NCBI GenBank assembly: GCA_044223515.1 | Contig: JBGALV010000012.1 | Coordinates: 368-64,367, forward strand | Reading direction: 5' to 3' | Source: Alphaproteobacteria bacterium | Lineage (GTDB): Bacteria; Pseudomonadota; Alphaproteobacteria; SHVZ01 | Length of the DNA stretch: 64,000 nucleotides | Shown: positions 1,818-30,634 of the stretch, piece after piece | Layout of the letters: every line of letters begins with the position of its first letter | Numbering within the stretch: the stretch's first letter is position 1 | Notes under the pieces: generated by a model | Told to the model about the DNA's origin: nothing | What the model saw: the letters and a program-made list of their open reading frames with translations, nothing else | Database searches by the model: none | Position numbers and translations under genes: made by a program

Positions 1818-4800
1818 ATGGGGTTGCGTCGCTGGATCACCGCCGAGCCGACCAGGATCGTGGTCGGGGCCTTCGCCGTCGTGCTGCTCGCCTCTGCCGG
1901 GGTGATCGGCCTGGTGGTCGAGCGCGACTATCGCGAGGCGCTGGCGCTGCGCCAGGAATCGGTCGAGAACGCCAAGAGCCAGCTCGAGATCAAGGTCCGC
2001 CGGGTAGAGGACCTGGTGACCCTGCTCCGGAGCCACGCCGAGGGCTTCCTTCGCGACCGCGCCTCGACCTCGGCGATCGCCACCGACGCCCGCGTGCTCC
2101 GTTGGCTCGCCGATCCCGTCGACGGCCTCCACAGCTTCGACCGCATCCCCGTCGAGGAACGCGGCCGCGAGTCCGGCAACCTGCTCGCCTTCGAGGACGA
2201 CCGCGCCAAGGCCGGCGGGTTCCAGCGCACGGGCTCCTCCGACATCGCCACGGACGCCGAGATCGCGATCGACCTGATGCGTCCGATCCGCACCGTGCAC
2301 GAGCGCAACAACTACGTCGGCTCGATCTACTTCATCACGCCGCGCGGCGTCGCCTACGCCTATCCATGGCGATCCTCGGCAATGTTCGACGAGGGCTTCT
2401 TCCTCAACGATTTCTTCCAGTACGGCGTACCGACGATGAATCCGTCGCGCGCGGCGTTCTGGACGCCCGCCTACAAGAGCGACACCAGCCTTTCCCACGT
2501 CGTCGTCCGCGGCGCGCCGGTCTACGACGGCGCCCGCTTCGCCGGCGTGGTCGCGATGGAGGTGGCCGTCGCCGACCTCCAGTCCTTCCTGCGCACGAAC
2601 GAGAGCGAAGGGCGGATGATGCTGGTCGACGGCCGCCGGCGGGTGCTGGCGGAGTCGGACACCACCGGCGTCGAGATGCCCGGCCTGACCCAGCGCCTGC
2701 CCGAGAACCTGCACGGGGCGGTTCTCGGCGCGATCTCGCTGCGCCGCTTCGGGCAGATCGTCGATGATGCCTTCGTCGTCACCTACCGCACCTTCGACGG
2801 CGCGCCGTGGATGCTGGTCGAGCTCATGCCGGTCCAGGCGATCCGCGCCGAAGTCGCCCGTTTCTACACGCTGCCGGCGGCCGTCTATTTCAGCGTGCTG
2901 GTCGGGCTCTTCGTCCTCACCTATGTCGTCGTCGGCCGCACCTTCCGGCAGGTGCAGAAGGCGAACGAGGACCTGAGCGTCGCCTACTTCACGCTCGAGA
3001 ACGCCACCGACGGCATCGTCTGGATCGACCGCGACGGCATCATCATCGAGGCCAACCGCATGGCCGCCGCGATCGCCGGGTACGCGCCCGGCGCGCTCCA
3101 CGGCCGCCATGCCGCGGAGCTGATACCGGCGCTGTCGCGCGAGCATTACGCCCGGCTCTGGCAGGCGGTCGTCGACGGCAAGCGCGAGACGCCGCTGGAA
3201 CGCGAGCTGCTTCGCTGCGACGGCACGACGGTCCCGATCGAATCCACCGCCAAGTACATCAAGACCGGCGAGCATGAGTTCGCCTGCAACTTCATCCGCG
3301 ACATCACGCGCCGCAAGCAGCACGACGACGAGCTGCGCGCCGCCAAGGAAGCCGCCGAGGACGCGACCAAGGCGAAGTCGTCCTTCCTTGCGATGATGAG
3401 CCACGAGATCCGCACGCCGATGAACGGCGTCATGAGCATGGCCGAGATGCTCGAGCAGACGAAGCTCTCATCCGACCAGCGCTCGATGAGCCAGGTGATC
3501 CGCGGATCGGCGCGGGCGCTGCTGACCATCATCAACGACATCCTCGACTTCTCGAAGATCGAGGCCGGCAAGCTCGACATCGAGACGGTCGAGTTCTCGC
3601 TGCTCGACGTGGTCGAGGTCGCGGGCGAGCTGGTCGCCGGACGCGCCGACGAGAAGGGCCTCGCCTTCGTCGTCGACCTCGACCCGCGCATCCCCGACCG
3701 CCTCATCGGCGATCCGACGCGGCTCCGCCAGATCCTGCTCAACCTGACGGGCAACGCGGTCAAGTTCACCGAGGCCGGCGGCGTGACGCTGAAGGTCGAG
3801 CGTCTTAACTCGATCGAGGGCGCCGAGCGGCTCCGCTTCGAGGTCGTCGACACCGGCATCGGCCTCACCAGCGAGCAATGCGGCCGGCTGTTCCAGGCCT
3901 TCGCCCAGGCCGACACCTCGACCTCGCGCAAATATGGCGGCACCGGGCTCGGCCTTTCGATCTGCAAGCGACTCGTCGACATGATGGGCGGCCGGATCGG
4001 CGTCGACTCCGTGCCGGGCGAAGGCTCGACCTTCTGGCTCGAGCTGCCGTTCCCGGTGGTGACGCCGGCCCTGGACCGGCCGGACCCGCCGATCGACGAC
4101 GCGCGCGTGGCCGCGCTCGGCTTCGAGGGATCGCAGCGGCGCGCGCTCGGACGGCTTCTCGCCGCGGCCGGGATCGAGGCAACCTTCGCCGGGCTCGACG
4201 AAGTGCCGGACGAGAGCGATCTCGTCCTGCTCGCCGCAACGTCGGATCGCGAGGCGGCGCTGGCGATCGGCCGCGCGCTCTCCGGCCAGGGCCGCAAGGC
4301 GGTGCTCGCGGCACCCCGCGCGATGGCCTCCACGCTCGCCGAGGCGGATCGGGCCGGCCTGTTCTCGACGATGACATTGCCGATCCGCCGGAAGCGGCTC
4401 TGGCTCACGATCGCGGCCGCGCTCGGCCGCGCCGACCTCGACGACGCCGGCGCCGAGGCCGGATCGGAAGAGACCGGGTTCGCGCCGCCTTCGGTCGAGG
4501 AGGCGCGGGCCGCCGGCGTGCTGGTCCTCGTCGCCGAGGACAACGCCACCAACCGCATCGTGGTCTCGCGCCTGCTCGGCCAGCGCGGATACGCGCACGA
4601 GCTGGCGGAGGACGGCCGCGAGGCGCTGGCGCGCTACGAGGCCGCCCCGGGCTACGGGTTGCTGCTGACCGACTTCCACATGCCGGAGATGGACGGCTTC
4701 GAGCTGACCGCGGCGATCCGCCGGCACGAGTCCGACGGGCGCATGCGACTGCCGATCGTGGCGCTGACGGCCGATGCGCTGCCCGGCACGGAACAGCGTT

Positions 4801-5306
4801 GCCTCGATTCCGGCATGGACGGATACCTCACCAAGCCGATCGATTCCGCGCGTCTCACCGCGACGCTGGCGAAGTTCCTTCCCGGAGCGAAGGCGCTCCG
4901 CCGCCGCGCGGACGACGAGGCGACGCCCGATGCGCCATCCACGCCCGCGGTGCCGGCGATCGATCCGCAGATACTCGACCTCGCCCGCATCGCCGAGACC
5001 TTCGGCGCGATCGACGCCGACGCCCGTGCCTTTCTCGGCAACTTCACCGGCGAGGCGCAGCGCATGGTCGCCGACGCGACGGCGGCGCTCGATGCGGGCG
5101 ATGCGAAGAAGGCACGCCACCATGTCCATGCGCTGAAGGGAGCCGCGCGCTCGACCGGCGCCACGCGCCTCGGCCAGCTCGCCTCCGACATCCAGGACTG
5201 CCTCGACGGCGACGACCTCGACTCCGCCCGTCTCTTCGCTGGCGGCCTCAAGAAGACCGCCGACGAGCTTGCCGATGCCGTCGCCTCCCTCCTCGAACCA
5301 GCATGA
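1818..5306 (+). CDS. Hybrid sensor histidine kinase (TM-periplasmic Cache-like domain-TM-PAS-HisKA-HATPase_c-pseudo-receiver-receiver-Hpt)
   Basis: H-box HEIRTPMNGV, G-boxes DTGIGL/GGTGLGLSI, receiver VLVAEDNATN..DFHMPEMDG..KP, C-terminal Hpt HHVHALKGAARSTG. Two hydrophobic segments bracket a ~300-aa periplasmic domain. Confidence 0.9.
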   Translation: MGLRRWITAEPTRIVVGAFAVVLLASAGVIGLVVERDYREALALRQESVENAKSQLEIKVRRVEDLVTLLRSHAEGFLRDRASTSAIATDARVLRWLADPVDGLHSFDRIPVEERGRESGNLLAFEDDRAKAGGFQRTGSSDIATDAEIAIDLMRPIRTVHERNNYVGSIYFITPRGVAYAYPWRSSAMFDEGFFLNDFFQYGVPTMNPSRAAFWTPAYKSDTSLSHVVVRGAPVYDGARFAGVVAMEVAVADLQSFLRTNESEGRMMLVDGRRRVLAESDTTGVEMPGLTQRLPENLHGAVLGAISLRRFGQIVDDAFVVTYRTFDGAPWMLVELMPVQAIRAEVARFYTLPAAVYFSVLVGLFVLTYVVVGRTFRQVQKANEDLSVAYFTLENATDGIVWIDRDGIIIEANRMAAAIAGYAPGALHGRHAAELIPALSREHYARLWQAVVDGKRETPLERELLRCDGTTVPIESTAKYIKTGEHEFACNFIRDITRRKQHDDELRAAKEAAEDATKAKSSFLAMMSHEIRTPMNGVMSMAEMLEQTKLSSDQRSMSQVIRGSARALLTIINDILDFSKIEAGKLDIETVEFSLLDVVEVAGELVAGRADEKGLAFVVDLDPRIPDRLIGDPTRLRQILLNLTGNAVKFTEAGGVTLKVERLNSIEGAERLRFEVVDTGIGLTSEQCGRLFQAFAQADTSTSRKYGGTGLGLSICKRLVDMMGGRIGVDSVPGEGSTFWLELPFPVVTPALDRPDPPIDDARVAALGFEGSQRRALGRLLAAAGIEATFAGLDEVPDESDLVLLAATSDREAALAIGRALSGQGRKAVLAAPRAMASTLAEADRAGLFSTMTLPIRRKRLWLTIAAALGRADLDDAGAEAGSEETGFAPPSVEEARAAGVLVLVAEDNATNRIVVSRLLGQRGYAHELAEDGREALARYEAAPGYGLLLTDFHMPEMDGFELTAAIRRHESDGRMRLPIVALTADALPGTEQRCLDSGMDGYLTKPIDSARLTATLAKFLPGAKALRRRADDEATPDAPSTPAVPAIDPQILDLARIAETFGAIDADARAFLGNFTGEAQRMVADATAALDAGDAKKARHHVHALKGAARSTGATRLGQLASDIQDCLDGDDLDSARLFAGGLKKTADELADAVASLLEPA

Positions 5307-5319
5307 ATGGCTTGTCTCC

Positions 5320-5721
5320 ATGAACGACAGGAACAACCCCTATGCCGGCGTCACCGTCCTCGTGATCGAGGATGAAGGCAACACGCGGCTCCTGATCAAG
5401 CGCCTGCTGCTTCAGATCGGCATCATCTCGGTGGTCGAGGCCGCGGACGGCAAGGCCGGCCTCGACGAGGCGATGCGGACTCGGCCCACGATCATCCTCT
5501 GCGACGTGCACATGGAGCCGGTCGACGGCCGCGCCTTCCTGAAGACGCTTCGCGGTCTCAAGGTGCGGGACCTCGCGAATACGCCCGTCATCTTCCTCAC
5601 CGCCGACGCCCAGACGGACACCGTGCTGTTCGCCAAGGAGCACAACGTCAACGGCTACCTGGTGAAACCGGTCTCGCTGACCCAGCTGAAGACCAGGGTG
5701 GACGCTATTCTGAAGCGCTGA
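5320..5721 (+). CDS. Single-domain response regulator, paralog of 1325..1735
   Basis: ~60% identical to the upstream receiver and same length (LCDVHMEPVDG, NGYLVKPVSL). In-frame ATG at 5320 chosen over ORF-track start 5269, which overlaps the kinase stop. Confidence 0.85.
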   Translation: MNDRNNPYAGVTVLVIEDEGNTRLLIKRLLLQIGIISVVEAADGKAGLDEAMRTRPTIILCDVHMEPVDGRAFLKTLRGLKVRDLANTPVIFLTADAQTDTVLFAKEHNVNGYLVKPVSLTQLKTRVDAILKR

Positions 5722-5762
5722 AGCCCTCCCTCGCGCGCGCAAAAAATGGTATCAGCGCGCCC

Positions 5763-6899
5763 ATGAACACCGCCGATTTCATCATCATCGGTGCCGGCAT
5801 CGCCGGCGCCTCCGCCGCCTACGAGCTCGCCAGCGACTCCAAGGTGATCGTCCTCGAACGCGAGTCCCAGCCGGGCTACCACACCACCGGCCGCTCGGCC
5901 GCGCTCTATACCGAGGTCTACGGCAACCGCGCGATCCGCGCGATCACCAGCGCGAGCCGCGCCTTCTTCGAGGCGCCGCCCGCGGGCTTCACCGAGCATC
6001 CGCTGCTAACGCCGCGCGGCACGCTGCTGATCGGGCGCGACGACCAAGAAGCCTCGCTCGCGATGGCGCTCGAGGAAGGCACGCGCACCGTCGACTCCGT
6101 CTCGATGATCAGCGCCAGCGACGTCGCGATGAAGGTGCCGTTCCTCAAGCCCGGATATGCCAAGGGCGCGGTCTGGGAGCCGGACGCCCGCGACATGGAC
6201 GTGCATGCGATCCACCAGGGCTTCCTGAAGGGCCTTCGCGCACGCGGCGGCAAGGTGATCACCGATGCCGAGGTTCTGGGCCTCTCGTCCTCGGGCGGCG
6301 ACTGGACGATCGAGACTCGCGCCGGCTCGTTCCGCGCCCCGGTCGTGATCAACGCCGCCGGCGCCTGGGCCGACGTGGTCGCGAAGATGGCCGGCGCCAG
6401 GATCGTCGGCCTGGTGCCCAAGCGGCGCACCGCCTTTACCTTCGACGTGCCCCAGGGCACGCATGTGGAGAAGGTGCCGGCGGTCATCGACGTCGACGAG
6501 ACCTGGTACATCAAGCCCGAGTCCGGCCGACTTCTCGGCAGCCCCGCGGACGAGACGCCGTCGGAGCCCTGCGACGCGCAGCCGGAAGAGCTGGATCTCG
6601 CGATCGCGATCGACCGCATCGAGCAGGCGATCGCCTTCGGCATCGGCCGGCTTCATTCGAAATGGGCGGGCCTCCGCTCCTTCGTCGCCGACAAGACGAT
6701 GGTCGCGGGCTTCGCGAAGAAGACACCGGGCTTCTTCTGGCTCGCGGGCCAGGGCGGCTACGGCATCCAGACCTGCCCCGGCATGGCGCGGATCGCGGCC
6801 GAGCTCGCGCGCGGACGGCCGTTCCCGCAGGAGGTCGCCGATCGCGGCGTCGATGCGTCCGACCTCTCGCCGGATCGGCTGAGCCTCGAGGTCGCCTAG
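5763..6899 (+). CDS. FAD-dependent oxidoreductase (DAO family, glycine/D-amino-acid oxidase-like)
   Basis: N-terminal dinucleotide fold DFIIIGAGIAGASAAYEL; 378 aa. Confidence 0.85.
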   Translation: MNTADFIIIGAGIAGASAAYELASDSKVIVLERESQPGYHTTGRSAALYTEVYGNRAIRAITSASRAFFEAPPAGFTEHPLLTPRGTLLIGRDDQEASLAMALEEGTRTVDSVSMISASDVAMKVPFLKPGYAKGAVWEPDARDMDVHAIHQGFLKGLRARGGKVITDAEVLGLSSSGGDWTIETRAGSFRAPVVINAAGAWADVVAKMAGARIVGLVPKRRTAFTFDVPQGTHVEKVPAVIDVDETWYIKPESGRLLGSPADETPSEPCDAQPEELDLAIAIDRIEQAIAFGIGRLHSKWAGLRSFVADKTMVAGFAKKTPGFFWLAGQGGYGIQTCPGMARIAAELARGRPFPQEVADRGVDASDLSPDRLSLEVA

Positions 6900-7307
6900 A
6901 TGTCGGCCGGGATGGACAACCGCGACATCGACAATCCCACGCTCGATCCCGAGCTCCGGAAGATCGACGACCTGTTCGTCCGCAGCTACTACGGCAAGGA
7001 CCTCGAGACGCTGTGGTCGAAGATCTTCGACCCGGGCTTCGTGTTCATGGACGGATCGGATGGTCGCAAGGTCGAGCGCGCGGAGTTCGACCGCGGCTGC
7101 CTGAGCCAGCCGCCGTACCGCAACCTCGTGCACGACCAGGTCTCGACGCGCATCGAAGGCGACACCGCGGTCGTCACCGCGCGCAATCGCTACGAACGCC
7201 AGATCGACGGCAAGTGGGTCGCGTTCAATACGCGGTATGTCGACGTGTTCAGGCGCGTCGGCGGCGAGTGGCGGTGCTTCTTCGCGACGGTCTACAAGGT
7301 CGCCTGA
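6900..7307 (+). CDS. SnoaL-like / DUF4440 (NTF2-fold) hypothetical protein
   Basis: ATG immediately follows the oxidoreductase TAG (coupled). NTF2-like length and pattern. Confidence 0.55.
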   Translation: MSAGMDNRDIDNPTLDPELRKIDDLFVRSYYGKDLETLWSKIFDPGFVFMDGSDGRKVERAEFDRGCLSQPPYRNLVHDQVSTRIEGDTAVVTARNRYERQIDGKWVAFNTRYVDVFRRVGGEWRCFFATVYKVA

Positions 7308-7331
7308 CGGCGACGCGGCGCGTCGACGAGA

Positions 7332-7595
7332 TCAGCCCCCGGTGGACACCGGGGTCGCTGTCGTCGTCTGCGACTGCACGTCAACGCCGGGTAGGACGCG
7401 GCGGATGGCGTCGGGAAGGTTGGTAACCGCGGGCGGGGCCGTCAGCTCCGGCGGCGGCGGCATGTCGCCGGCCTTGGGGGCCAGCAGGAACCCGACCGCG
7501 ACCGGACTCGCCAGGATCGCCACCAGAAGGACGCGAAGGGCCAGGCGGCCGAAGCGGCCGCCGATATCGTCGGATCGTTGCGCCAAGTCCGTCAT
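7332..7595 (-). CDS. Hypothetical small membrane protein
   Basis: Short ORF with one hydrophobic helix (LALRVLLVAILASPVAVGFLL), convergent with the previous gene. Weak support. Confidence 0.25.
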   Translation of the reverse strand: MTDLAQRSDDIGGRFGRLALRVLLVAILASPVAVGFLLAPKAGDMPPPPELTAPPAVTNLPDAIRRVLPGVDVQSQTTTATPVSTGG

Positions 7596-20832: not shown

Positions 20833-20861
20833 AGATAAGGGCCACGGTCCCTCGCTTGTGT

Positions 20862-21042
20862 GGTCGCTACGCTAGCGCTCTCGGTGCGCAAGCGCGCACC
20901 TGCCGCGTTAGCTAGGCGCCCACGCTCGGGGCCCCCACCCTGCCCTCCCCCGCTGACGCGGGGGAGGGTTTTCTTTTTTGGGTTCGAGAGCGCGGAACGC
21001 GAAAGCTTTTCGGTCGTCCGGAAAGCGGCAGCGTTACGCCAT
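20862..21042. repeat. Composite intergenic repeat block (module M3 + REP core R1 + module M2)
   Basis: M3 GTCGCTACGCTAGCG..GTGCGCAAGCGCGCAC..TTAGCTAGGCGCC; R1 GGCCCCCACCCTGCCCTCCCCCGCTGACGCGGGGGAGGG; M2 GAGCGCGGAACGCG..GCTTTTCGGTCGTCCGGAAAGCGG. Each recurs elsewhere in the window. Confidence 0.75.
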
Positions 21043-22028: not shown

Positions 22029-22670
22029 ATGACCCTCGCCGCACCCTTCTCCAGTCCTATGAATGCGGGCCGCCAGGCTGCCTTCGGGCCGGTTCTGGCG
22101 AGCTCGCGTCTGCGTGTGCGCCAGATGGGCCGCGACGACGTGGCGAGGATCTACGAGGTCAACCGCAGCCTCAACCGCCGCTACCTCTCCGCGCCGCCGC
22201 TCGACCTCGAGGGGCTGGAGGAGCTGCGCCAAGTGTTCGAAGGCGAGTGGCGGAAATACGGTCTCGGTTACCTCATGGTCTGCCATGGCGACGAGAGCGT
22301 GGGTCACGTCCGCCTCAAATGCATCCCGGACTGCACCTCGGGCCGTGCCGCGGAACTCACCTACGCGATCGCGCCGGCACATCAGGACCAGGGCTACGCG
22401 ACCGAGGCGGTCGGGCTGGTGCTGCAGTTCGCGTTCGACGAAGCTGAGGTCGACTACGTCGTCGCCTGCGTCGAGCCCGACAACGCCGCCTCGCTCCGCG
22501 TGGTGGAGAAGAACGGCCTCGCATGGGTCGCCACGGGCAAGATGCATGGCCGGTTGATGCGGCGGTACATCCTGCCGGAGACGATGTGGCGTGCGCAGCG
22601 CCGGGCGATCAACGCGCAGCACCCTTCCATTTCGACCTCGCTCCGCTCGGAACTTTCGACGCGAGCTTAG
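22029..22670 (+). CDS. GNAT-family N-acetyltransferase
   Basis: AAAGGGAG RBS and acetyl-CoA motif pattern (QDQGYATEAVGLVLQFAF). Confidence 0.8.
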   Translation: MTLAAPFSSPMNAGRQAAFGPVLASSRLRVRQMGRDDVARIYEVNRSLNRRYLSAPPLDLEGLEELRQVFEGEWRKYGLGYLMVCHGDESVGHVRLKCIPDCTSGRAAELTYAIAPAHQDQGYATEAVGLVLQFAFDEAEVDYVVACVEPDNAASLRVVEKNGLAWVATGKMHGRLMRRYILPETMWRAQRRAINAQHPSISTSLRSELSTRA

Positions 22671-22739
22671 GGGCGTAAACGCCTCGTAAGTCGACCGCGC
22701 TCCAGCGCGGCGCGCCTTACTGTGCGTTTCCGCCGCTCG

Positions 22740-22815
22740 CGAAAACCGCGAGCGCGGAACGCGGCAGCTTTTCGGTCGTCCGAAAAGCGGGAGCGTTCTG
22801 CATCAAGCGAGCGTC
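22740..22815. repeat. Repeat module M2
   Basis: GAGCGCGGAACGCGGCAGCTTTTCGGTCGTCCGAAAAGCGGGAGCGTT. Contains a GCTTTTCGG/CCGAAAAGC hairpin. Confidence 0.7.
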
Positions 22816-23628: not shown

Positions 23629-24798
23629 TCAGGACTTCAGCGGCTCCAGGATGCTCACGTAGTTCGCCACCGCCGCGCCGCCCATGTTGAAGATCCCCGC
23701 GAGCTTGGCATTCGGCACCTGGATCGCGCCCGCGGTTCCCGTCACCTGCATCGCGCCCATGACGTGCATGGAAACGCCGGTGGCGCCGACCGGATGGCCC
23801 TTCGACTTGAGCCCGCCCGACGGATTGACCGGGAGCTTGCCGGTCTTCTCCGTCCAGCCTTCCTGGATCGCGCGGAAGCCTTGCCCGCGCGGCGTGAGGC
23901 CCATGGCCTCGTACTCGATCAGCTCCGCGACCGTGAAGCAGTCATGAGTCTCCACCAGCGAGAGATCGGAGAGGCCGAGCTTCGCGTTCGAGAGCGCACG
24001 CTTCCACGCGACCTCGCAGCCTTCGAAGAGCGTGATGTCGCGGCGCGACATCGGCAGGAAGTCGTTGACGTGCTCGGCCGCGCGGAACGCGACGGCCTTC
24101 TTGGACGCGAGCGCGGTGTCGAGATCGGCCAGCACCACGGCCGCCGCGCCGTCGGAGACCAGCGAGCAGTCCGAGCGCTTGAGCGGCCCCGCGACGAACG
24201 GGTTCTTCTCCGAGGCGTTGCGGCAGAACTCGTAGCCGAGATCCTTCTTCATGTGCGCCAGCGGATTGACGGCGCCGTTCTTGTGGTTCTTCGCCGCGAT
24301 GCGGGCGAGCGCGTCCGACTGGTCGCCGTGCTTCTGGAAGTAGCGCTGCGTGATGCCGCCGAAGATTCCGGCGAAGCCGCCTTGGGTGTCACCCTCTTCC
24401 TTGAGATAGGACGCGCGGATCAAACACTCGCCGACCTGCTGCCCGGTGACCTCGGTCATCTTCTCCACGCCGACCACGAGCACGCGCTTCGCCTTGCCGG
24501 CGCCGATCGCGTTCAGCCCCTGGTGGATCGCGGCCGACCCCGTCGCGCACGCGTTCTCCACGCGCGTCGCCGGCTTGAAGCGCCACTCGTCGAACGCCTG
24601 CAGCGTGAGCGACGACGGAAACTCCTGGCGCACGAAGCCCGCGTTGAGGTGGCCCAAGTAGATCGCGTCGATGTCCTTGGGCTCCAGCCCCGCATCCGCG
24701 ACGGCTTCGCGCGCGACCTTGACGATCAACGTCTCGAGATCGAGCGCGTCATGCTTCCCGAACGGGGTATGCGACCAGCCGATGATGCAGGCGGACAT
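23629..24798 (-). CDS. Thiolase-family protein (SCP-x type, non-canonical acetyl-CoA C-acyltransferase-like)
   Basis: 389-aa thiolase fold, with active-site-region Cys (ENACATGS) and a C-terminal Gly-rich region. Confidence 0.85.
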   Translation of the reverse strand: MSACIIGWSHTPFGKHDALDLETLIVKVAREAVADAGLEPKDIDAIYLGHLNAGFVRQEFPSSLTLQAFDEWRFKPATRVENACATGSAAIHQGLNAIGAGKAKRVLVVGVEKMTEVTGQQVGECLIRASYLKEEGDTQGGFAGIFGGITQRYFQKHGDQSDALARIAAKNHKNGAVNPLAHMKKDLGYEFCRNASEKNPFVAGPLKRSDCSLVSDGAAAVVLADLDTALASKKAVAFRAAEHVNDFLPMSRRDITLFEGCEVAWKRALSNAKLGLSDLSLVETHDCFTVAELIEYEAMGLTPRGQGFRAIQEGWTEKTGKLPVNPSGGLKSKGHPVGATGVSMHVMGAMQVTGTAGAIQVPNAKLAGIFNMGGAAVANYVSILEPLKS

Positions 24799-24946
24799 GG
24801 GGGAGTGCTCCGAGTAGCGATTTGTTCGGACAATCTAGCATGACCTTTCTCGGCAAAGGTGGGGAGGTCGACAAAGCACCACTACTTTGAGCTGCATTAA
24901 GTCAGCGTGCTCCGCTAGGATTGAGCTACTTTCGAGAGGAGCGCAC

Positions 24947-25831
24947 GTGCTTTCGATTCGACTCAAGTCCCTCGTGCAAAATCCGCCATGGAAAGCATGG
25001 GGAAGAGAGGCTCTCGTTTCTTTAGGTACACTGTGGCTTGTTCTTGAATTATCGAGCTGGGCTCTTCCTAATATTTACGATGACATACTTAAAATATACG
25101 CCTTAACTGGGGCATCTATTATTTCTTTTATTTGGGCCACTTATCGGTCTATTCCTCCGGTTCAATATAAAAAGAGATTCAAATCGCGAAGCACGACTAT
25201 TGAATTGCGCGTCGACGATCTAATTGAAAATGCGAAATCTCGCCACATTGGCATCTTAAGCAGCAACTACTTCGATTCGTGCACTAATACGGCAATCTCG
25301 GCCCACAGCCTTAAGGGAAAACTCATCACATCTTACTATTCCGGCCTTATGGCTTCCTTTGATAGCGCTGTGGACCAGTCGTTAAACAAGAACGGAATTG
25401 TAGGCGTGGAAAATCCAGGCAAGCAGCGAGGCGTAAACAGACTGCGTAGGTATGAGATTGGAACTGTTGCTGCCGTCCCGGTTGGATCGTTCAAAGCCAT
25501 TCTGGTTGTCGGTGCTGAGTTCGAAGATTCATCCTCATTCACCAGCACGAATGCGATGGGCTTTTGGGCCTCGCTCCTAGCGCTTTGGAGAGGCGCCCAG
25601 CTAGAGGGACACCGACAGCCGATAGCTGTTCCAATTTGGGGTGCAAATTTGGGGAATGCGCCCGGGAGTCGCTTGGTGAAATTTCAGACGCTCTTGTGCT
25701 CGTTTGCTGTCGCATCGGCGGCAGCCAATCAACCTCCCACGACCGACCTCCACATCGTGGTCTGGAAAGGGGACTATGATCCCGAGGAATTTAGAACAAT
25801 GGCAGAAGTGCTATCCGAGTTCGAAATGTAG
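24947..25831 (+). CDS. Horizontally acquired 2-TM membrane protein with cytoplasmic Rossmann-like domain (macro/SLOG-like, tentative)
   Basis: About 45% GC versus ~68% around it. GAGGAG RBS 6 nt before GTG 24947 (alternative ATG 24887). Two N-terminal TM helices, and a C-terminal IAVPIWGANLGNAP motif resembling the macro-domain IAFPAISTGIYG loop. Confidence 0.7.
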   Translation: MLSIRLKSLVQNPPWKAWGREALVSLGTLWLVLELSSWALPNIYDDILKIYALTGASIISFIWATYRSIPPVQYKKRFKSRSTTIELRVDDLIENAKSRHIGILSSNYFDSCTNTAISAHSLKGKLITSYYSGLMASFDSAVDQSLNKNGIVGVENPGKQRGVNRLRRYEIGTVAAVPVGSFKAILVVGAEFEDSSSFTSTNAMGFWASLLALWRGAQLEGHRQPIAVPIWGANLGNAPGSRLVKFQTLLCSFAVASAAANQPPTTDLHIVVWKGDYDPEEFRTMAEVLSEFEM

Positions 25832-25845
25832 ACTCTCCTCGTCCA

Positions 25846-26430
25846 ATGCTCGCCTTCTACTTCGCCCCCGGTTCATCCTCGATGGCGGCGCATATCGCGC
25901 TGCACGAGGTCGGCTGTCCGTTCGAAAGCCGGCCGGTGTCTCTGGCGAAGAGCGAGACCAGGACGCCGGAGTTCCTGAAGGTCAATCCCAGGGGCAAGGT
26001 GCCGACGCTGGTGGTCGACGGCCGCGTGCTGACCGAGGTCGCAGGCATCCTGTTCTATCTCGCGCGGCGCTATCCGGAGGCGAAGCTGCTGCCCGAAGAT
26101 GATCCGTTCCTCGAGGCCGACGTCGTGTCCTGGATGTCGTTCCTGGCGTCGGGCGTGCACCCCGCGCGGAGCGAGGGGCCGGAGGCGGCGCGCGCGATCT
26201 GGGAGATCGCGGAGCAGCGGCTGGGCACGAGGGACTGGGCAGTCGGCGACAGGTACTCGATCGCGGACATCCACCTGTTCCGCTTGTTCTGGCGCTTCGG
26301 CACCCCTTTGATCGCGAAGCCCGGCGACCTCGCGAACTTGAAGCGGCATCACGACAGGATGCTGGAGAGGGTGGCGGTGAAGCGGACGATCGAGGTGGAG
26401 AAGCAGGTGGGATATCAGCTGCCTGCATGA
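25846..26430 (+). CDS. Glutathione S-transferase
   Basis: GST N/C domains (FYFAPGSSS..VPTLVVDG..). Starts 14 nt after the low-GC gene stop with no SD. Confidence 0.85.
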   Translation: MLAFYFAPGSSSMAAHIALHEVGCPFESRPVSLAKSETRTPEFLKVNPRGKVPTLVVDGRVLTEVAGILFYLARRYPEAKLLPEDDPFLEADVVSWMSFLASGVHPARSEGPEAARAIWEIAEQRLGTRDWAVGDRYSIADIHLFRLFWRFGTPLIAKPGDLANLKRHHDRMLERVAVKRTIEVEKQVGYQLPA

Positions 26431-26461
26431 GAGAAGATTTGCGGACGCGAGCTGAGTGCGG

Positions 26462-26632
26462 CTCGCTACGCTAAGGCTGTCGTGCGCAAGCGCGCACTTG
26501 CGCCTTAGCTAGGCGCCCGCGCTCGCGGGCGGAATGCGAAAGTAAGATCGGCGGAGCGAAGCGGAGACGGCTTACGGCAGCATTGCGCCCTTAAGCGAGC
26601 CTCGGGAGTTCCGAGCGTAGCGAGGTCAATGC
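26462..26632. repeat. Repeat module M3 (second copy) plus partial inverted unit
   Basis: GCTCGCTACGCTAAGG..GTGCGCAAGCGCGCAC..TTAGCTAGGCGCCCGCGCTCG closely matches 20862-20928. Confidence 0.7.
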
Positions 26633-27455: not shown

Positions 27456-27680
27456 TCACGCCGGGCGATGGAAGCGCAGCCCCGGGTCCTCGTGGGCCTC
27501 GATGCGCGGCGAGCCGGCCTTCTCCGTCCGCAGGCGTTCGAGGAAGCGCACGGCCTCCTCTTCCGTCATCGGCGCCGAGCGCCGTTCCTGGCAGCCCGTG
27601 CTCCACAGCACCGCGAAGCGCCGGCGGGCGACCAGGACGGACTTCTTGGTGCCGGCCGGATTGGGATTCTTCATCGTCAT
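27456..27680 (-). CDS. Hypothetical small basic protein (module gene B, copy 1)
   Basis: 74 aa with RRRFAVLW..RRSAPMTEEEA..RLRTEKA. Paralog at 29760..29987. 3-nt gap after gene A1. Confidence 0.55.
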   Translation of the reverse strand: MTMKNPNPAGTKKSVLVARRRFAVLWSTGCQERRSAPMTEEEAVRFLERLRTEKAGSPRIEAHEDPGLRFHRPA

Positions 27681-27683
27681 GGG

Positions 27684-28097
27684 TCAGCTCTCTCCGATGA
27701 TCCGCCGGATCACCTTGGTCTCGATGGTGGTGGGCGAAAGCTCGACGCCGGTCGGCGCGACCTCGAACACGCCGCGGAACTCGACCAGGTTGCGGCCGGT
27801 CTCCCCCTTCTCGCGCTGACGCGCGACCGCGACGACGAAGGGCTGCGGCGTGGCAATCAGCTTCGCCCTCTCCTCGGAATCCTTCACCGCGATCGCGAGG
27901 TATGCATCGCGCGGCGCCGCCTTCTTCCGGCTGGCCTTCGCCGGCAGCGCATCGGGCTCCTTCGGAGGCGGCACGCTGCGCCAGGTGTCCGCCCAGGCGA
28001 CGCGCACGCTGTCGATGAGGCGGCCATTCAGGCGCCGTTCCGCCGACTGCGTGCGGCTCACGAACTTCAGGCCGTATCCATCGACAAGGCTCGACAT
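27684..28097 (-). CDS. Hypothetical protein (module gene A, copy 1)
   Basis: 137 aa starting MSSLVDGYGLKFVSRTQSAERRL, with GAGGTAG RBS. About 55% identical to the paralog at 29990..30391. Confidence 0.6.
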   Translation of the reverse strand: MSSLVDGYGLKFVSRTQSAERRLNGRLIDSVRVAWADTWRSVPPPKEPDALPAKASRKKAAPRDAYLAIAVKDSEERAKLIATPQPFVVAVARQREKGETGRNLVEFRGVFEVAPTGVELSPTTIETKVIRRIIGES

Positions 28098-29715: not shown

Positions 29716-29759
29716 CCCCGTCTAGCATGCGGGGCGAGGCGGCGCGACACACGGACGCG

Positions 29760-29987
29760 CTAGCGTCCGGTGCCGCGAAGGACGGGGCCTTCCTCGATCT
29801 CGATCCGGACGTTCTGGGCCTTCTCCACGCGAAGCCGCGCGGCGAAGTTCTCGGATTCCTGATCGGTCATCGGCGCGGAGCGCCGGTCCTGGTGGTTCGC
29901 CGTCCACATCACCACGAAGCGGCGGCGGCTCGCCGGCGTCGCCGCCCTGACCACGCCGCCGCTCTTGTCGGCCTTCGTCGCTGTCAT
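29760..29987 (-). CDS. Hypothetical small basic protein (module gene B, copy 2)
   Basis: 75 aa with RRRFVVMW..RRSAPMTDQES..RLRVEKA. 2-nt gap after gene A2. Confidence 0.55.
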   Translation of the reverse strand: MTATKADKSGGVVRAATPASRRRFVVMWTANHQDRRSAPMTDQESENFAARLRVEKAQNVRIEIEEGPVLRGTGR

Positions 29988-29989
29988 GC

Positions 29990-30391
29990 TCAGGCCTCGC
30001 TCGCGGTGACGCGGCGGAGCACCCGCGTTTCCAGGCTCGTCGGCGACGGGTCGACGCCGGTCGGGCTCACCTCGAACACGCCGCGGAAATCGGCGAGGCT
30101 GCCGCGCTTGCCTTCCGAGCGCGTCTCGGCGAGCGCGACGACGAACGGCGCCGGCTTCGCCTTCTGCGCGGCCATCGCCGCCGCATCGGGGAACGAGATC
30201 TCGACGAACACCTCGCGCGCCGTCTTGCGGGCCGCCTTGCCCGCGGCCATGGCGTCGTCGGGCACCGGTGCGCTCCGCCAGCTCGCGACCCACGCGACCG
30301 GGATCGTGTCGATCAATCGACCATGCAGACGACGCTCCGCGCTCTGCGTGCGGCTCAGGAATTTCAGATCGAAACCGTCGACGAGACTCAC
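29990..30391 (-). CDS. Hypothetical protein (module gene A, copy 2)
   Basis: GTG start with GGAGGTGG RBS. Starts VSLVDGFDLKFLSRTQSAERRL and ends ..FRGVFEVSPTGV. Confidence 0.6.
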   Translation of the reverse strand: MSLVDGFDLKFLSRTQSAERRLHGRLIDTIPVAWVASWRSAPVPDDAMAAGKAARKTAREVFVEISFPDAAAMAAQKAKPAPFVVALAETRSEGKRGSLADFRGVFEVSPTGVDPSPTSLETRVLRRVTASEA

Positions 30392-30634
30392 GCGACCACC
30401 TCCGGAACAAAAGCGAAGGCACGCCCACCCGGGAACGGCGTGCGGCAGCGACAACAGAACGCAAGCACGCACCCCGTTCCGGGCCCGGCTCGCTCTGCAC
30501 TCGATTTCTCGCTGATACGTCGGCCGCGGCTATTGCGGCGGCCGAACTCGACCAGGAATCCCACCCTACGTGGGCGCGGTGCGAAAGACCATTCCTAAAT
30601 GGGTATGGAGGCAGCGTCTTTCCAGGCCGCGCGC

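Follow-up and report, generated by a model that had tools for sequence, protein, structure and literature searches.

The insert and its surroundings

A thsA-like gene lies between a thiolase gene and a GST gene in a 64-kb stretch of alphaproteobacterial DNA, referred to here as the window. The genes, signals and boundaries of this region are as follows.

23629..24798, minus strand: native thiolase gene, left flank (Pfam Thiolase_N and Thiolase_C; 94% protein identity to P0011 of the sister genome L013)
24805..25843, no strand: foreign segment of ~1.04 kb, delimited by blastn to L013 and L014 and by junction alignments (GC 0.496 vs 0.68)
24934..24941, plus strand: Shine-Dalgarno sequence GAGAGGAG, read from the sequence, 5 nt upstream of the GTG start
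24947..25831, plus strand: thsA-like coding sequence, 294 aa, with a GTG start and a TAG stop (25829-25831), encoding a TM hairpin and a ThsA-type Macro domain
25832..25845, plus strand: spacer ACTCTCCTCGTCCA of 14 nt from the thsA-like stop to the GST start, with no Shine-Dalgarno sequence and no terminator
25846..26430, plus strand: native GST gene, right flank (Pfam GST_N and GST_C; 78-83% DNA identity to L013 and L014)

The exact protein encoded by the thsA-like gene is already on record (P0001). The interval 24799-25845 is precisely the gap between the thiolase start and the GST start, and its GC content of 0.498 lies far below that of background windows of 1047 nt (mean 0.680, sd 0.021, minimum 0.622; z = -8.8). 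The original prediction of a low-GC island in a background of ~68% GC therefore stands, but its figure of ~45% GC for the whole island does not, as such a value (~0.44) is reached in the 5' half of the ORF only. GC3 is 0.51 in the thsA-like ORF versus 0.76-0.97 in every other likely gene of the window, and this is the sole gene of foreign composition in the 64 kb.

Homology to the empty site of L013 and to L014, as detected by blastn, ends at 24804 and restarts at 25844-25846, and the foreign segment has taken the place of ~92 bp of the native spacer between the thiolase and GST genes. The right edge lies at most ~14 nt from the stop codon. On the left, some similarity to the native spacer persists and places the edge no more precisely than within 24805-24885, so that the foreign DNA begins ~5-85 nt past the thiolase start and not necessarily at it, as had been proposed. 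A comparison of sister genomes for presence or absence of the insert, suggested with the original prediction, gave a clear result: the insert is absent from L013, in which the GST gene and a thiolase gene encoding a 94% identical protein are 100 bp apart, and L014 holds other cargo in the same gap. Since the site is empty in a sister genome, the thsA-like gene arrived alone. It is a single-gene cassette, acquired horizontally by insertion.

The insertion left few other marks. No credible TSD or IR was found at the island, where short direct and inverted repeats occur at chance level only; no integrase, transposase or recombinase gene adjoins it, and the 64-kb window contains no tRNA gene and no Rfam family. 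Searches for phage carriage were negative: 50,697 phage records gave no tblastn match, and IMG/VR yielded no relative. In one sister genome, this variable-cargo thiolase-GST site carries a TA-like pair.

The abrupt compositional break, in a contig evidently derived from an uncultured organism, is what would be expected if a metagenomic assembler had joined a low-GC kilobase to a high-GC contig. However, an independent assembly (L010; 2684 bp, run SRR28480390) spans the thiolase gene, the insert and the GST gene, including both junctions, at 99.8% identity. All five mismatches fall in the thiolase gene and L010 is therefore not the same consensus as the window contig, while the thsA-like gene is identical in the two assemblies. 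Moreover, the Pseudomonas copy of the gene is likewise a low-GC single-gene island, found on 16 contigs from several samples. We consider the chance of an assembly chimera to be negligible.

The inserted gene has a strong Shine-Dalgarno sequence of its own, GAGAGGAG, 5 nt ahead of the GTG at 24947, and the GST ATG follows 14 nt past the foreign stop, both as described in the original prediction. A scan for sigma-70 promoters and intrinsic terminators detected no promoter-like or terminator-like site between the two genes. Because the spacer ACTCTCCTCGTCCA lacks both a Shine-Dalgarno sequence and a terminator, the thsA-like and GST genes are probably co-transcribed.

Family, fold and topology of the encoded protein

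The features of the 294-aa protein, in the order in which they are encoded, are the following.

25007..25063, plus strand: TM helix 1, ~residues 21-39 (Kyte-Doolittle peak 22-40; AlphaFold helix 15-39)
25085..25141, plus strand: TM helix 2, ~residues 47-65 (Kyte-Doolittle peak 47-65; AlphaFold helix 46-68)
25193..25819, plus strand: ThsA-type Macro domain, residues 83-291 (Pfam PF20016, family profile against the PDB, Foldseek)
25259..25276, plus strand: SSNYFD loop, residues 105-110, with an F-D pair nearly invariant across the family
25631..25672, plus strand: remodelled diphosphate/ligand loop PIWGANLGNAPGSR, residues 229-242 (residue mapping onto 8r66; clade-specific residue analysis)

The two N-terminal TM helices, which had been proposed from the sequence, coincide with hydropathy peaks and with AlphaFold helices of pLDDT above 90. 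The flanks of the hairpin are rich in K/R, including the segment that follows TM helix 2 (six in residues 67-85), and the Macro domain is therefore predicted to be cytoplasmic.

The resemblance of this TM plus macro architecture to type II Thoeris ThsA, the core of the original prediction, is borne out by four approaches that all agree. Pfam assigns residues 85-271 to PF20016 ThsA_Macro (82.8 bits vs a cut-off of 25; E 3.3e-23; profile positions 1-181 of 183), and the PADLOC ThsA2/ThsA1 models match at 1e-28 over profile positions 13-265 of 282, covering both the TM and Macro regions. A family profile searched against the PDB retrieved ThsA Macro structures only (8v6q, 9uuz, 8r66 and 8v6s; E 1e-32 to 3e-38). 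The AlphaFold model (pLDDT 96.1, pTM 0.90) has a macro fold, and its eight best Foldseek matches are ThsA Macro crystal structures (8v6q, 8r66, 8v6r and 8v6s; E 5e-11 to 1e-9; target-normalised TM 0.74-0.78), followed by a second tier of classical macrodomains (macroH2A, Af1521 and OiMacroD). An NCBIfam search of the 294-aa protein gave no match. By family, fold and topology, it is a ThsA-family TM-macro protein.

It shares with the characterised type II ThsA proteins (B. amyloliquefaciens Y2, 8r66; E. coli CFT073 EcThsA, 8v6q and 8v6r; PcThsA, 8v6s) the Pfam family PF20016, the TM hairpin, a C-terminal Macro domain of ~210 aa and a total length of ~290 aa, but is just 16-19% identical to the crystallised ThsA proteins. 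A SLOG-type effector, offered earlier as an alternative, is rejected: no SLOG/LOG Pfam match appears even at E<=10, and there is none among the 50 best Foldseek matches listed. All 50 are macrodomains, whether of ThsA or of other proteins, apart from a few spurious matches to SPX domains (rmsd 6-16 A). Classical macrodomains, which read or erase ADP-ribosylation as soluble proteins, have no TM anchor and are without the additional beta elements and lengthened pocket loops specific to ThsA (10.1101/2024.01.03.573942). The MacroD catalytic Asp (D40 in OiMacroD) is reported to be absent from ThsA Macro domains (10.1101/2024.01.03.573942).

The second Foldseek tier raises the possibility of a membrane macrodomain protein with no part in defence, such as an ADP-ribose sensor or hydrolase acting in NAD/ADPR homeostasis or in reversal of ADP-ribosylation at the membrane. 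Macrodomains often bind or hydrolyse ADPR derivatives, the classical ones have the same alpha/beta/alpha fold and adenine-binding logic (target-normalised TM ~0.63-0.76), the flanking genes are metabolic, and co-transcription with one of them, GST, is probable. However, in both sequence and structure the protein is matched best by ThsA Macro domains and not by MacroD or PARG types. Mono-ADPR, poly-ADPR and OAADPr are reportedly not processed in the macro pockets of ThsA (PMC11204291). The gene's foreign composition, its patchy distribution and its location at a variable-cargo site that holds a TA-like pair in a sister genome are hallmarks of defence or accessory genes, and insertion into a pre-existing gap accounts for the housekeeping flanks. 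A non-defence role is thus very improbable.

A remodelled pocket in a TIR-less subclade

Three local motifs singled out in the original prediction are true pocket elements when aligned to their canonical counterparts: NYFD is the canonical NEYFD, ILVVGAEF is the FLVAFSKF strand bearing S194, and PIWGANLGN is the PLLGSGITR diphosphate loop. In the characterised pocket, His-ADPR is contacted by D100, Y277, R240, N133 and S194, of which R240 contacts the histidine carboxylate and N133 and S194 contact the N-ribose (bioRxiv 10.1101/2024.01.03.573942). Mapped onto 8r66, the adenine contacts are kept (D100 to D91, and the stacking aromatic Y277 to W273), and the same holds for the F-D motif and for the first Gly in the diphosphate loop. 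In contrast, the His-ADPR-specific contacts are not kept in the 294-aa protein: N133 is replaced by K123, S194 by A190 and R240 by N237. G237 is likewise replaced by N234, so that the canonical GSG becomes GAN in a loop reading GANLGN. The N133 and S194 positions vary across the ThsA family anyway. Clade-specific residues cluster in the pocket loops at 104-116 and 231-248, those flanking the SSNYFD loop being L104, S105, C112, T115 and A116, and R242, which is close by and conserved in the clade, might take over from R240. The departure of this pocket from the His-ADPR-binding one was absent from the earlier reading of the sequence.

In type II Thoeris, thsA has a TIR gene (thsB) as its neighbour or operon partner. 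There is no such gene within the window: Pfam detects no TIR domain among the ten nearest genes, PADLOC finds no ThsB or TIR among the 68 window proteins, and seven ThsB/TIR probes searched by tblastn against all six frames of the 64 kb gave no match at E<=1, with controls at 1e-56 to 1e-62. The predicted lack of an adjacent TIR partner is thus confirmed and extended to the whole window, and the empty site in the sister genome further agrees with the gene's predicted orphan status.

The solo state belongs to the whole subclade, defined here as members at >= 45% identity, and not to the window locus alone. All six independent contexts seen (the window, L001, L007, L008, L009 and L026) are without a TIR neighbour, most of these being short metagenomic contigs with 5-12 kb of flank. 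Scans for the pattern of the clade alignment gave just two loci in genomes and one in metagenomes. Pfam and PADLOC searches of unannotated neighbours in the window, L007, L009, L026 and L028 disclosed no hidden TIR. The subclade is monophyletic (NJ bootstrap 62/100), and its outgroups (L019, four plasmids and a fusion in L011) are TIR-linked. The novelty here is this TIR-less clade, as the sister lineage and more distant relatives have TIR neighbours.

In the sister lineage L019, the operon consists of a TIR_2 gene, two small ORFs and then a ThsA_Macro gene (P0132). The window gene is a 1-kb single-gene insert, unlike the two- or three-gene operon of type II Thoeris. The P0132 operon keeps its TIR gene, which matches the PADLOC 'TIR-TM' model (6e-63) and not the ThsB models. 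P0132 is 38% identical to the window protein over its full length, has the same architecture and shares both the R240-to-Asn and the Y277-to-Trp changes, differing at the G237 position, where it has Ser and the window protein Asn. As the loss of R240 is common to this TIR-linked relative, it predates the loss of the TIR gene, and the Arg-to-Asn change on its own would be no signature of solo function.

Could the cognate ThsB be encoded elsewhere in the genome? The gene would then be one half of a canonical type II Thoeris system split across the genome, with a distant ThsB sensing phage and making the His-ADPR that activates this ThsA as in B. amyloliquefaciens, E. coli and P. aeruginosa. Neither architecture nor fold distinguishes the protein from canonical ThsA, the adenine contacts are retained, and a diffusible signal makes action in trans physically possible; furthermore, the 64 kb, from a contig of 64,466 bp, are the only visible part of the genome. 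Nonetheless, to judge from the empty site in a sister genome, the insertion brought in this gene alone, and both R240, the contact to the histidine carboxylate, and the GxG loop have changed, to Asn and GAN respectively. On balance, we regard a split canonical system as unlikely, though it deserves more weight than the other rivals considered here.

An effector that has lost its partner might also be a functionless remnant, drifting toward a pseudogene with no current role. There is no partner in cis, and the family is rare, a search of 5.8 billion clusters having yielded 10 close homologues. A seventh copy, L012 from Rhodocyclaceae, is a pseudogene with many stop codons that adjoins a transposase gene, and solo copies can therefore decay. 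Against this, the window ORF is intact, with a strong Shine-Dalgarno sequence and a fold predicted with high confidence; two independent assemblies give the same gene sequence, and unrelated genomes have repeatedly acquired the gene as a fresh low-GC island of its own. Across hosts as distant as Pseudomonas and the window alphaproteobacterium, 63 columns are invariant, and pN is just 0.21-0.41 where pS is saturated at ~0.8; the two are given separately because dS is saturated in every pair, precluding a dN/dS ratio. The thsA-like gene has been under long-term purifying selection, and a functionless orphan is a poor fit that we hold to be quite unlikely.

Proposed mode of action and relation to known systems

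Our preferred explanation, held with moderate confidence, is that this horizontally acquired cassette encodes a ThsA-family TM-macro effector of a small monophyletic subclade that lost its adjacent TIR (ThsB) gene, and that the effector is nucleotide-gated by a signal made in trans. The two-helix hairpin would anchor the protein in the inner membrane, and the Macro domain, on the cytoplasmic side, would bind a nucleotide of the adenine-diphosphate-ribose type. By analogy with characterised ThsA TM-macro proteins, ligand binding may drive higher-order oligomerisation and clustering of the TM helices, which would perturb the membrane or arrest growth and so block phage propagation. Type II ThsA is activated by His-ADPR (10.1101/2024.01.03.573942); because there is no thsB in cis and the histidine-recognising Arg is absent, the activating ligand here is probably something other than canonical His-ADPR supplied by a cognate ThsB. 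A more likely candidate would be an ADPR-type molecule made in trans, either by another cellular TIR/NADase or as a by-product of infection. The Arg-to-Asn and GxG-to-GAN changes point to a further candidate class of ADPR-derived ligand. One type II system has been reported to cause growth arrest without membrane depolarisation (10.64898/2026.01.22.701046), and the effector mechanism is therefore unsettled even for canonical ThsA.

A bolder version of this proposal, which we advance tentatively and consider rather doubtful, is that in the solo clade a single gene suffices as an anti-phage module, a mobile 'eavesdropping' effector with no need of a dedicated sensor. Its remodelled pocket would sense a generic NAD+-derived product (ADPR or a non-His ADPR conjugate) released when any resident TIR/SIR2 NADase fires or when phage enzymes consume NAD+, leading to TM clustering and growth arrest, and it would spread as a ~1-kb promoter-less cassette that exploits the promoters of its host at variable gaps between genes.

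In Thoeris, CBASS and Pycsar, a sensor is understood to be paired with an effector, and genome annotation tools discard unpaired parts. The TIR-less ThsA lineage is conserved, monophyletic and repeatedly transferred, and it may work without a dedicated sensor. If so, a membrane effector gated by a nucleotide does not need a signal generator of its own in order to persist and, presumably, to function, and might plug into signals from other systems or from infection itself. This would bear on the evolution of modular immune signalling, on cross-talk between defences and on defence capacity missed by pair-based detection. At 294 aa, the window protein is a compact construct that should be easy to test.

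CBASS provides two points of comparison. Its two-TM effectors (PMC11204291) have a two-helix TM domain and form nucleotide-triggered oligomers in membrane-disrupting clusters, matching the principle proposed here; however, their sensing domains and ligands, which are cyclic oligonucleotides, are unrelated, and no such matches appeared for the window protein in Pfam, PADLOC or Foldseek. A conceptual precedent for action without a partner is the standalone TIR-SAVED effector of Haloferax, a CBASS effector able to defend without its cognate synthase, a cyclase, by sensing a host nucleotide (10.1101/2025.06.19.660554). It differs in its domains, its ligand (c-di-AMP) and its output (NAD+ depletion). 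Furthermore, the Haloferax cyclase occurs naturally and was removed experimentally, whereas the whole natural clade of the window protein is without a partner.

Composition and product of the island

The island at 24799–25845 fills exactly the interval between two gene starts, that of a thiolase and that of a GST; its GC content is 0.498, compared with 0.677 for the window as a whole. Same-length background windows average 0.680 (sd 0.021, minimum 0.622), placing the island 8.8 sd lower. It contains a thsA-like ORF with a GC3 of 0.51 versus 0.76–0.97 elsewhere, the sole gene without the host codon signature among the ~68 likely genes in 64 kb. The features of the locus are as follows.

23629–24798, minus strand: thiolase gene, left flank
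24934–24941, plus strand: Shine-Dalgarno GAGAGGAG, 5 nt before GTG 24947
24947–25831, plus strand: thsA-like ORF, the GTG at 24947 being most plausibly its start
25829–25831, plus strand: TAG stop of the thsA-like ORF, read from the sequence
25846–26430, plus strand: GST gene with an ATG start, right flank

The original prediction of ~45% GC applies to the 5' half of the ORF (0.44) but not to the whole stretch. The GC content of the gene rises to ~0.54 in the 3' half and is lowest (0.30–0.42) around 25020–25180; the transmembrane (TM) region falls in the 5' half. As had been described, the GST ATG lies 14 nt past the thsA-like stop and the spacer lacks a Shine-Dalgarno sequence. Because a sequence scan found no terminator or promoter-like site between the two genes, they are probably co-transcribed.

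The 294-aa product, of which an identical sequence is on record (P0001), belongs to the ThsA TM-macro family. Its one Pfam match is ThsA_Macro (PF20016; 82.8 bits, E 3.3e-23, residues 85–271, nearly the whole profile), and the full-length ThsA "Macro domain" models of PADLOC align to residues 15–278 (1e-28); an NCBIfam search of the protein gave no match. Hydropathy places two helices at residues 22–40 and 47–65, and the K/R-rich helix flanks (4 and 6 residues) and the acidic loop joining the helices imply a hairpin with both termini inside (N-in/C-in) and the Macro domain in the cytoplasm. The AlphaFold2 model, for which 70 family sequences were aligned, has very high confidence (pLDDT 96.1, pTM 0.90), with helices at 15–39 and 46–68 and an alpha/beta domain at 73–291. 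When it was searched against the PDB with Foldseek, ThsA Macro crystals took the first eight places (EcThsA 8v6q/8v6r, Bacillus amyloliquefaciens Macro with signalling molecule 8r66, and PcThsA 8v6s; target-normalised TM-scores 0.74–0.78), followed by the classical macrodomains macroH2A, Af1521, and OiMacroD, while a family profile run against the PDB sequence set matches ThsA Macro entries only (E 1e-32 to 3e-38). The Pfam, PADLOC, topology, and structure results confirm the TM-plus-macro, ThsA-like architecture first proposed. The SLOG-type effector offered as an alternative was rejected, as the Foldseek matches listed are ThsA Macro structures and then classical macrodomains, with no SLOG fold among them.

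Insertion site and absence of a TIR partner

Homologues of the window thiolase show the host to be an uncultured alphaproteobacterium; the named relatives are from Stella and Stellaceae (78–80% identity). In the closest relative (contig L013, thiolase 94% identical), the divergent GST and thiolase genes are 100 bp apart, and this gap is an empty site. A third relative (L014, 90%) carries five small ORFs in the same gap (L014 2937–5000), including a DUF433 and PIN_10/DUF5615 toxin-antitoxin-like pair. The comparison with sister genomes that had been suggested for the 1-kb insert revealed one empty site and one with other cargo, which makes the thiolase–GST gap a site of variable cargo in this lineage. 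DNA homology between the window and these two contigs ends at 24804 and restarts at 25844–25846, so that ~1,039 bp of the window stand in place of ~92 bp. At the left edge, a weak residual likeness to the native spacer extends up to ~24880; at the right edge, native-like sequence is back within 14 nt of the thsA-like stop codon. We found no target-site duplication, tRNA, recombinase, or Rfam element at the island, and no terminal repeats above chance. An assembly chimera is excluded, since a contig from an independent assembly (L010, run SRR28480390) spans the thiolase, insert, and GST at 99.8% identity, with its five differences all inside the thiolase gene.

The ten nearest genes encode a TerC protein, a GNAT, a flavodoxin-like reductase, the thiolase, the GST, a RidA-like protein, and four small proteins without Pfam matches. 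No ThsB or TIR model was matched when the 68 window proteins were scanned with PADLOC, and tblastn of seven bona fide ThsB/TIR proteins against the window returned nothing at E≤1; these probes came from relatives' loci and cross-match one another's loci at 1e-56 to 1e-62. The predicted lack of an adjoining TIR gene therefore extends across 64 kb. Because the defining thsB partner was sought in this window and not found, the locus does not qualify as a type II Thoeris system. The same PADLOC scan matched mad2 (three proteins, best 3e-13), mad3 (1.5e-26), mad8 (7.6e-13), RT-Protease_XI (9e-19), SduA (two proteins, 6.5e-6), and others; these matches may reflect generic domains and not defence genes.

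A partnerless ThsA subclade

The family is modest in size, comprising 528 clusters (50% identity level) at E≤1e-3 and 8 at E≤1e-30, with only ~10 proteins at least 47% identical to the window protein. In a neighbour-joining tree these and P0131 form a monophyletic solo clade (bootstrap 62/100); support is 88/100 for the larger group that also takes in the next sequence, P0132. None of six contexts has a nearby TIR gene.

Window: thiolase–GST gap
Uncultured Pseudomonas (16 contigs, up to 87.7 kb): flanked by a cytochrome c gene and a transglutaminase cluster
L007: adjoins a patatin gene
L008: adjoins a SIR2_2-TPR gene
L009: contig with a clade copy
L026/L027: contigs with a clade copy

Gene GC is lower than that of the flanks in five of the six, and the Pseudomonas copy, too, forms an island of one gene (36–49% GC in a ~61–63% GC background). 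No relatives were found in phage records or viral contigs. The 5'-low, 3'-higher GC gradient is common to the Pseudomonas, L007, L008, and L026 copies and absent in L009. The L008 neighbour (4007–5941, convergent to the clade member) is a 644-aa SIR2_2 and TPR protein weakly matching the PADLOC type I ThsA SIR2 model (8e-4) and also PDC-S25; it is a possible NADase source of ADPR-type products.

It could be argued that the thsA-like gene is a decaying orphan, as a seventh copy (L012 8001–8872, Rhodocyclaceae MAG JAWKYX010000032.1), adjoining an HTH_33/DDE_3 transposase, is a pseudogene interrupted by numerous in-frame stops and frame changes, and individual solo copies can therefore decay. However, among the six intact clade genes with available DNA sequence pS is saturated (0.76–0.87) and non-synonymous differences are only 0.21–0.41, while 63 alignment columns are invariant across ten clade proteins, which points to lasting purifying selection on the protein once the lineage had lost its TIR linkage. 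This conservation and the repeated fresh acquisitions disfavour decay. The specific affinities to ThsA and the accessory-gene behaviour disfavour a non-defence membrane macrodomain. We found no description of solo TM-macro ThsA genes in the open-access literature; what is new here is a horizontally mobile ThsA subclade that has no partner gene and whose ligand loop is remodelled.

Outside the solo clade, TIR linkage is the rule. Unlike the clade, P0132 (38% identical to the window protein) has a TIR_2 protein in its operon, and annotated TIR genes adjoin plasmid relatives in Brucella, Synechococcus, Vibrio, and Priestia (three in Priestia). The P0132-associated TIR protein (L019 1240–1980) matches PADLOC "TIR-TM" at 6e-63 and ThsB models at only 4.5e-3, and two short ORFs without annotation (118 and 59 aa) separate its gene from the ThsA_Macro gene; this arrangement may represent a distinct Thoeris-like system. 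The more distant TM-macro genes on Nostoc and Calothrix plasmids lie beside a convergent gene for a DUF4062 protein, DUF4062 being what we take to be a TIR-like STIR-clan domain. This conserved ~484-aa neighbour (L021 4324–5781, L023 4251–5699) has its DUF4062 at the N terminus and matches PDC-S60 (1.4e-42). A tyrosine recombinase is next door in these Nostocales loci, and a CyanoTRADDas_TM protein is upstream in Calothrix. In Kofleriaceae (L011 7317–8639, MAG JAGPCY010000010.1), a 440-aa protein with ThsA_Macro at residues 233–405 (E 1.5e-27), a weak TIR_2 match at 86–161 (E 1e-3, under the Pfam cut-off), and no TM hairpin noted is a candidate TIR-Macro fusion; a 989-aa TIR-NB-ARC-TPR protein (4520–7489) is encoded directly before it.

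Ligand pocket and prospective signal

In B. amyloliquefaciens ThsA, D100 and Y277 touch the adenine of His-ADPR, Q135 reaches the ligand through water, the N-ribose is contacted by N133 and S194, and the histidine carboxylate by R240 (bioRxiv 10.1101/2024.01.03.573942). We mapped these positions with an alignment of three crystallised ThsAs and 160 family members (163 sequences), having verified for 8r66 that chain index = residue − 80.

Canonical pocket residues and their window-protein counterparts, by alignment to 8r66
D100: D91
Y277: W273
N133: K123
Q135: K125
S194: A190
G237: N234
R240: N237

By this alignment, the adenine end of the pocket is kept and the histidine-ribose-recognising end is not, the His-ADPR-specific Arg contact being replaced (R240 to N237). 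The R240 column is Arg in 101 of the 163 sequences and Asn in 14, and Asn at both G237 and R240 positions occurs only in close relatives of the window protein; the N133 and S194 positions vary across the whole family, and the TIR-linked sister P0132 also has R240 to Asn and Y277 to Trp. Clade-specific residues (≥90% conserved within the solo clade, <15% outside) cluster in pocket loops 104–116 and 231–248 (motif WGANLGNAPGNR), plus W273/G275. A clade-conserved R242 might compensate for the lost Arg.

A membrane pore or abortive infection has been described downstream of characterised ThsA, and one E. coli type II system causes growth arrest without depolarisation (10.64898/2026.01.22.701046). 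In the characterised TM-macro ThsA, the Macro dimer binds ADPR, binds imidazole adenine dinucleotide ~30-fold more strongly, and does not bind 2'/3'cADPR; ligand drives assembly into open-ended higher-order oligomers, which brings the TM hairpins together in clusters (PMC11204291). The physiological signal is ThsB-made His-ADPR (bioRxiv 10.1101/2024.01.03.573942). By homology, the cytoplasmic Macro domain of the window protein would bind an adenine-diphosphate-ribose nucleotide and oligomerise, and the oligomer would perturb the membrane or arrest growth. Because the gene travels alone, its clade lacks a dedicated TIR, and the pocket has lost the histidine-recognising Arg, the activating signal would be made in trans and probably differs from canonical His-ADPR; another TIR or NADase in the cell could supply it, or it could be an ADPR-type infection product. 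There is precedent in a standalone TIR-SAVED that senses host c-di-AMP, an effector working without a cognate synthase (bioRxiv 10.1101/2025.06.19.660554). A dedicated ThsB elsewhere in the genome could instead make His-ADPR, as the partner search spans 64 kb only, but the single-gene insertion, clade-wide solo state, and pocket changes disfavour this.

Two further features of the window were observed. Segments 27474–28088 and 29758–30385, containing minus-strand ORFs 27684–28097 and 29990–30472 without Pfam matches, both match L013 3681–4305 (70–73% identity), a pair of unannotated ORFs of 134 and 74 aa; since both match this one stretch, the window holds a diverged tandem-like duplication of a two-gene module to which no function is assigned. 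Short sequences (~65–195 nt) between genes or at gene ends (20845–20928, 22634–22765, and 26433–26625) match several intergenic places in L014 at 79–90% identity, which suggests a lineage-specific family of REP-like dispersed repeats.
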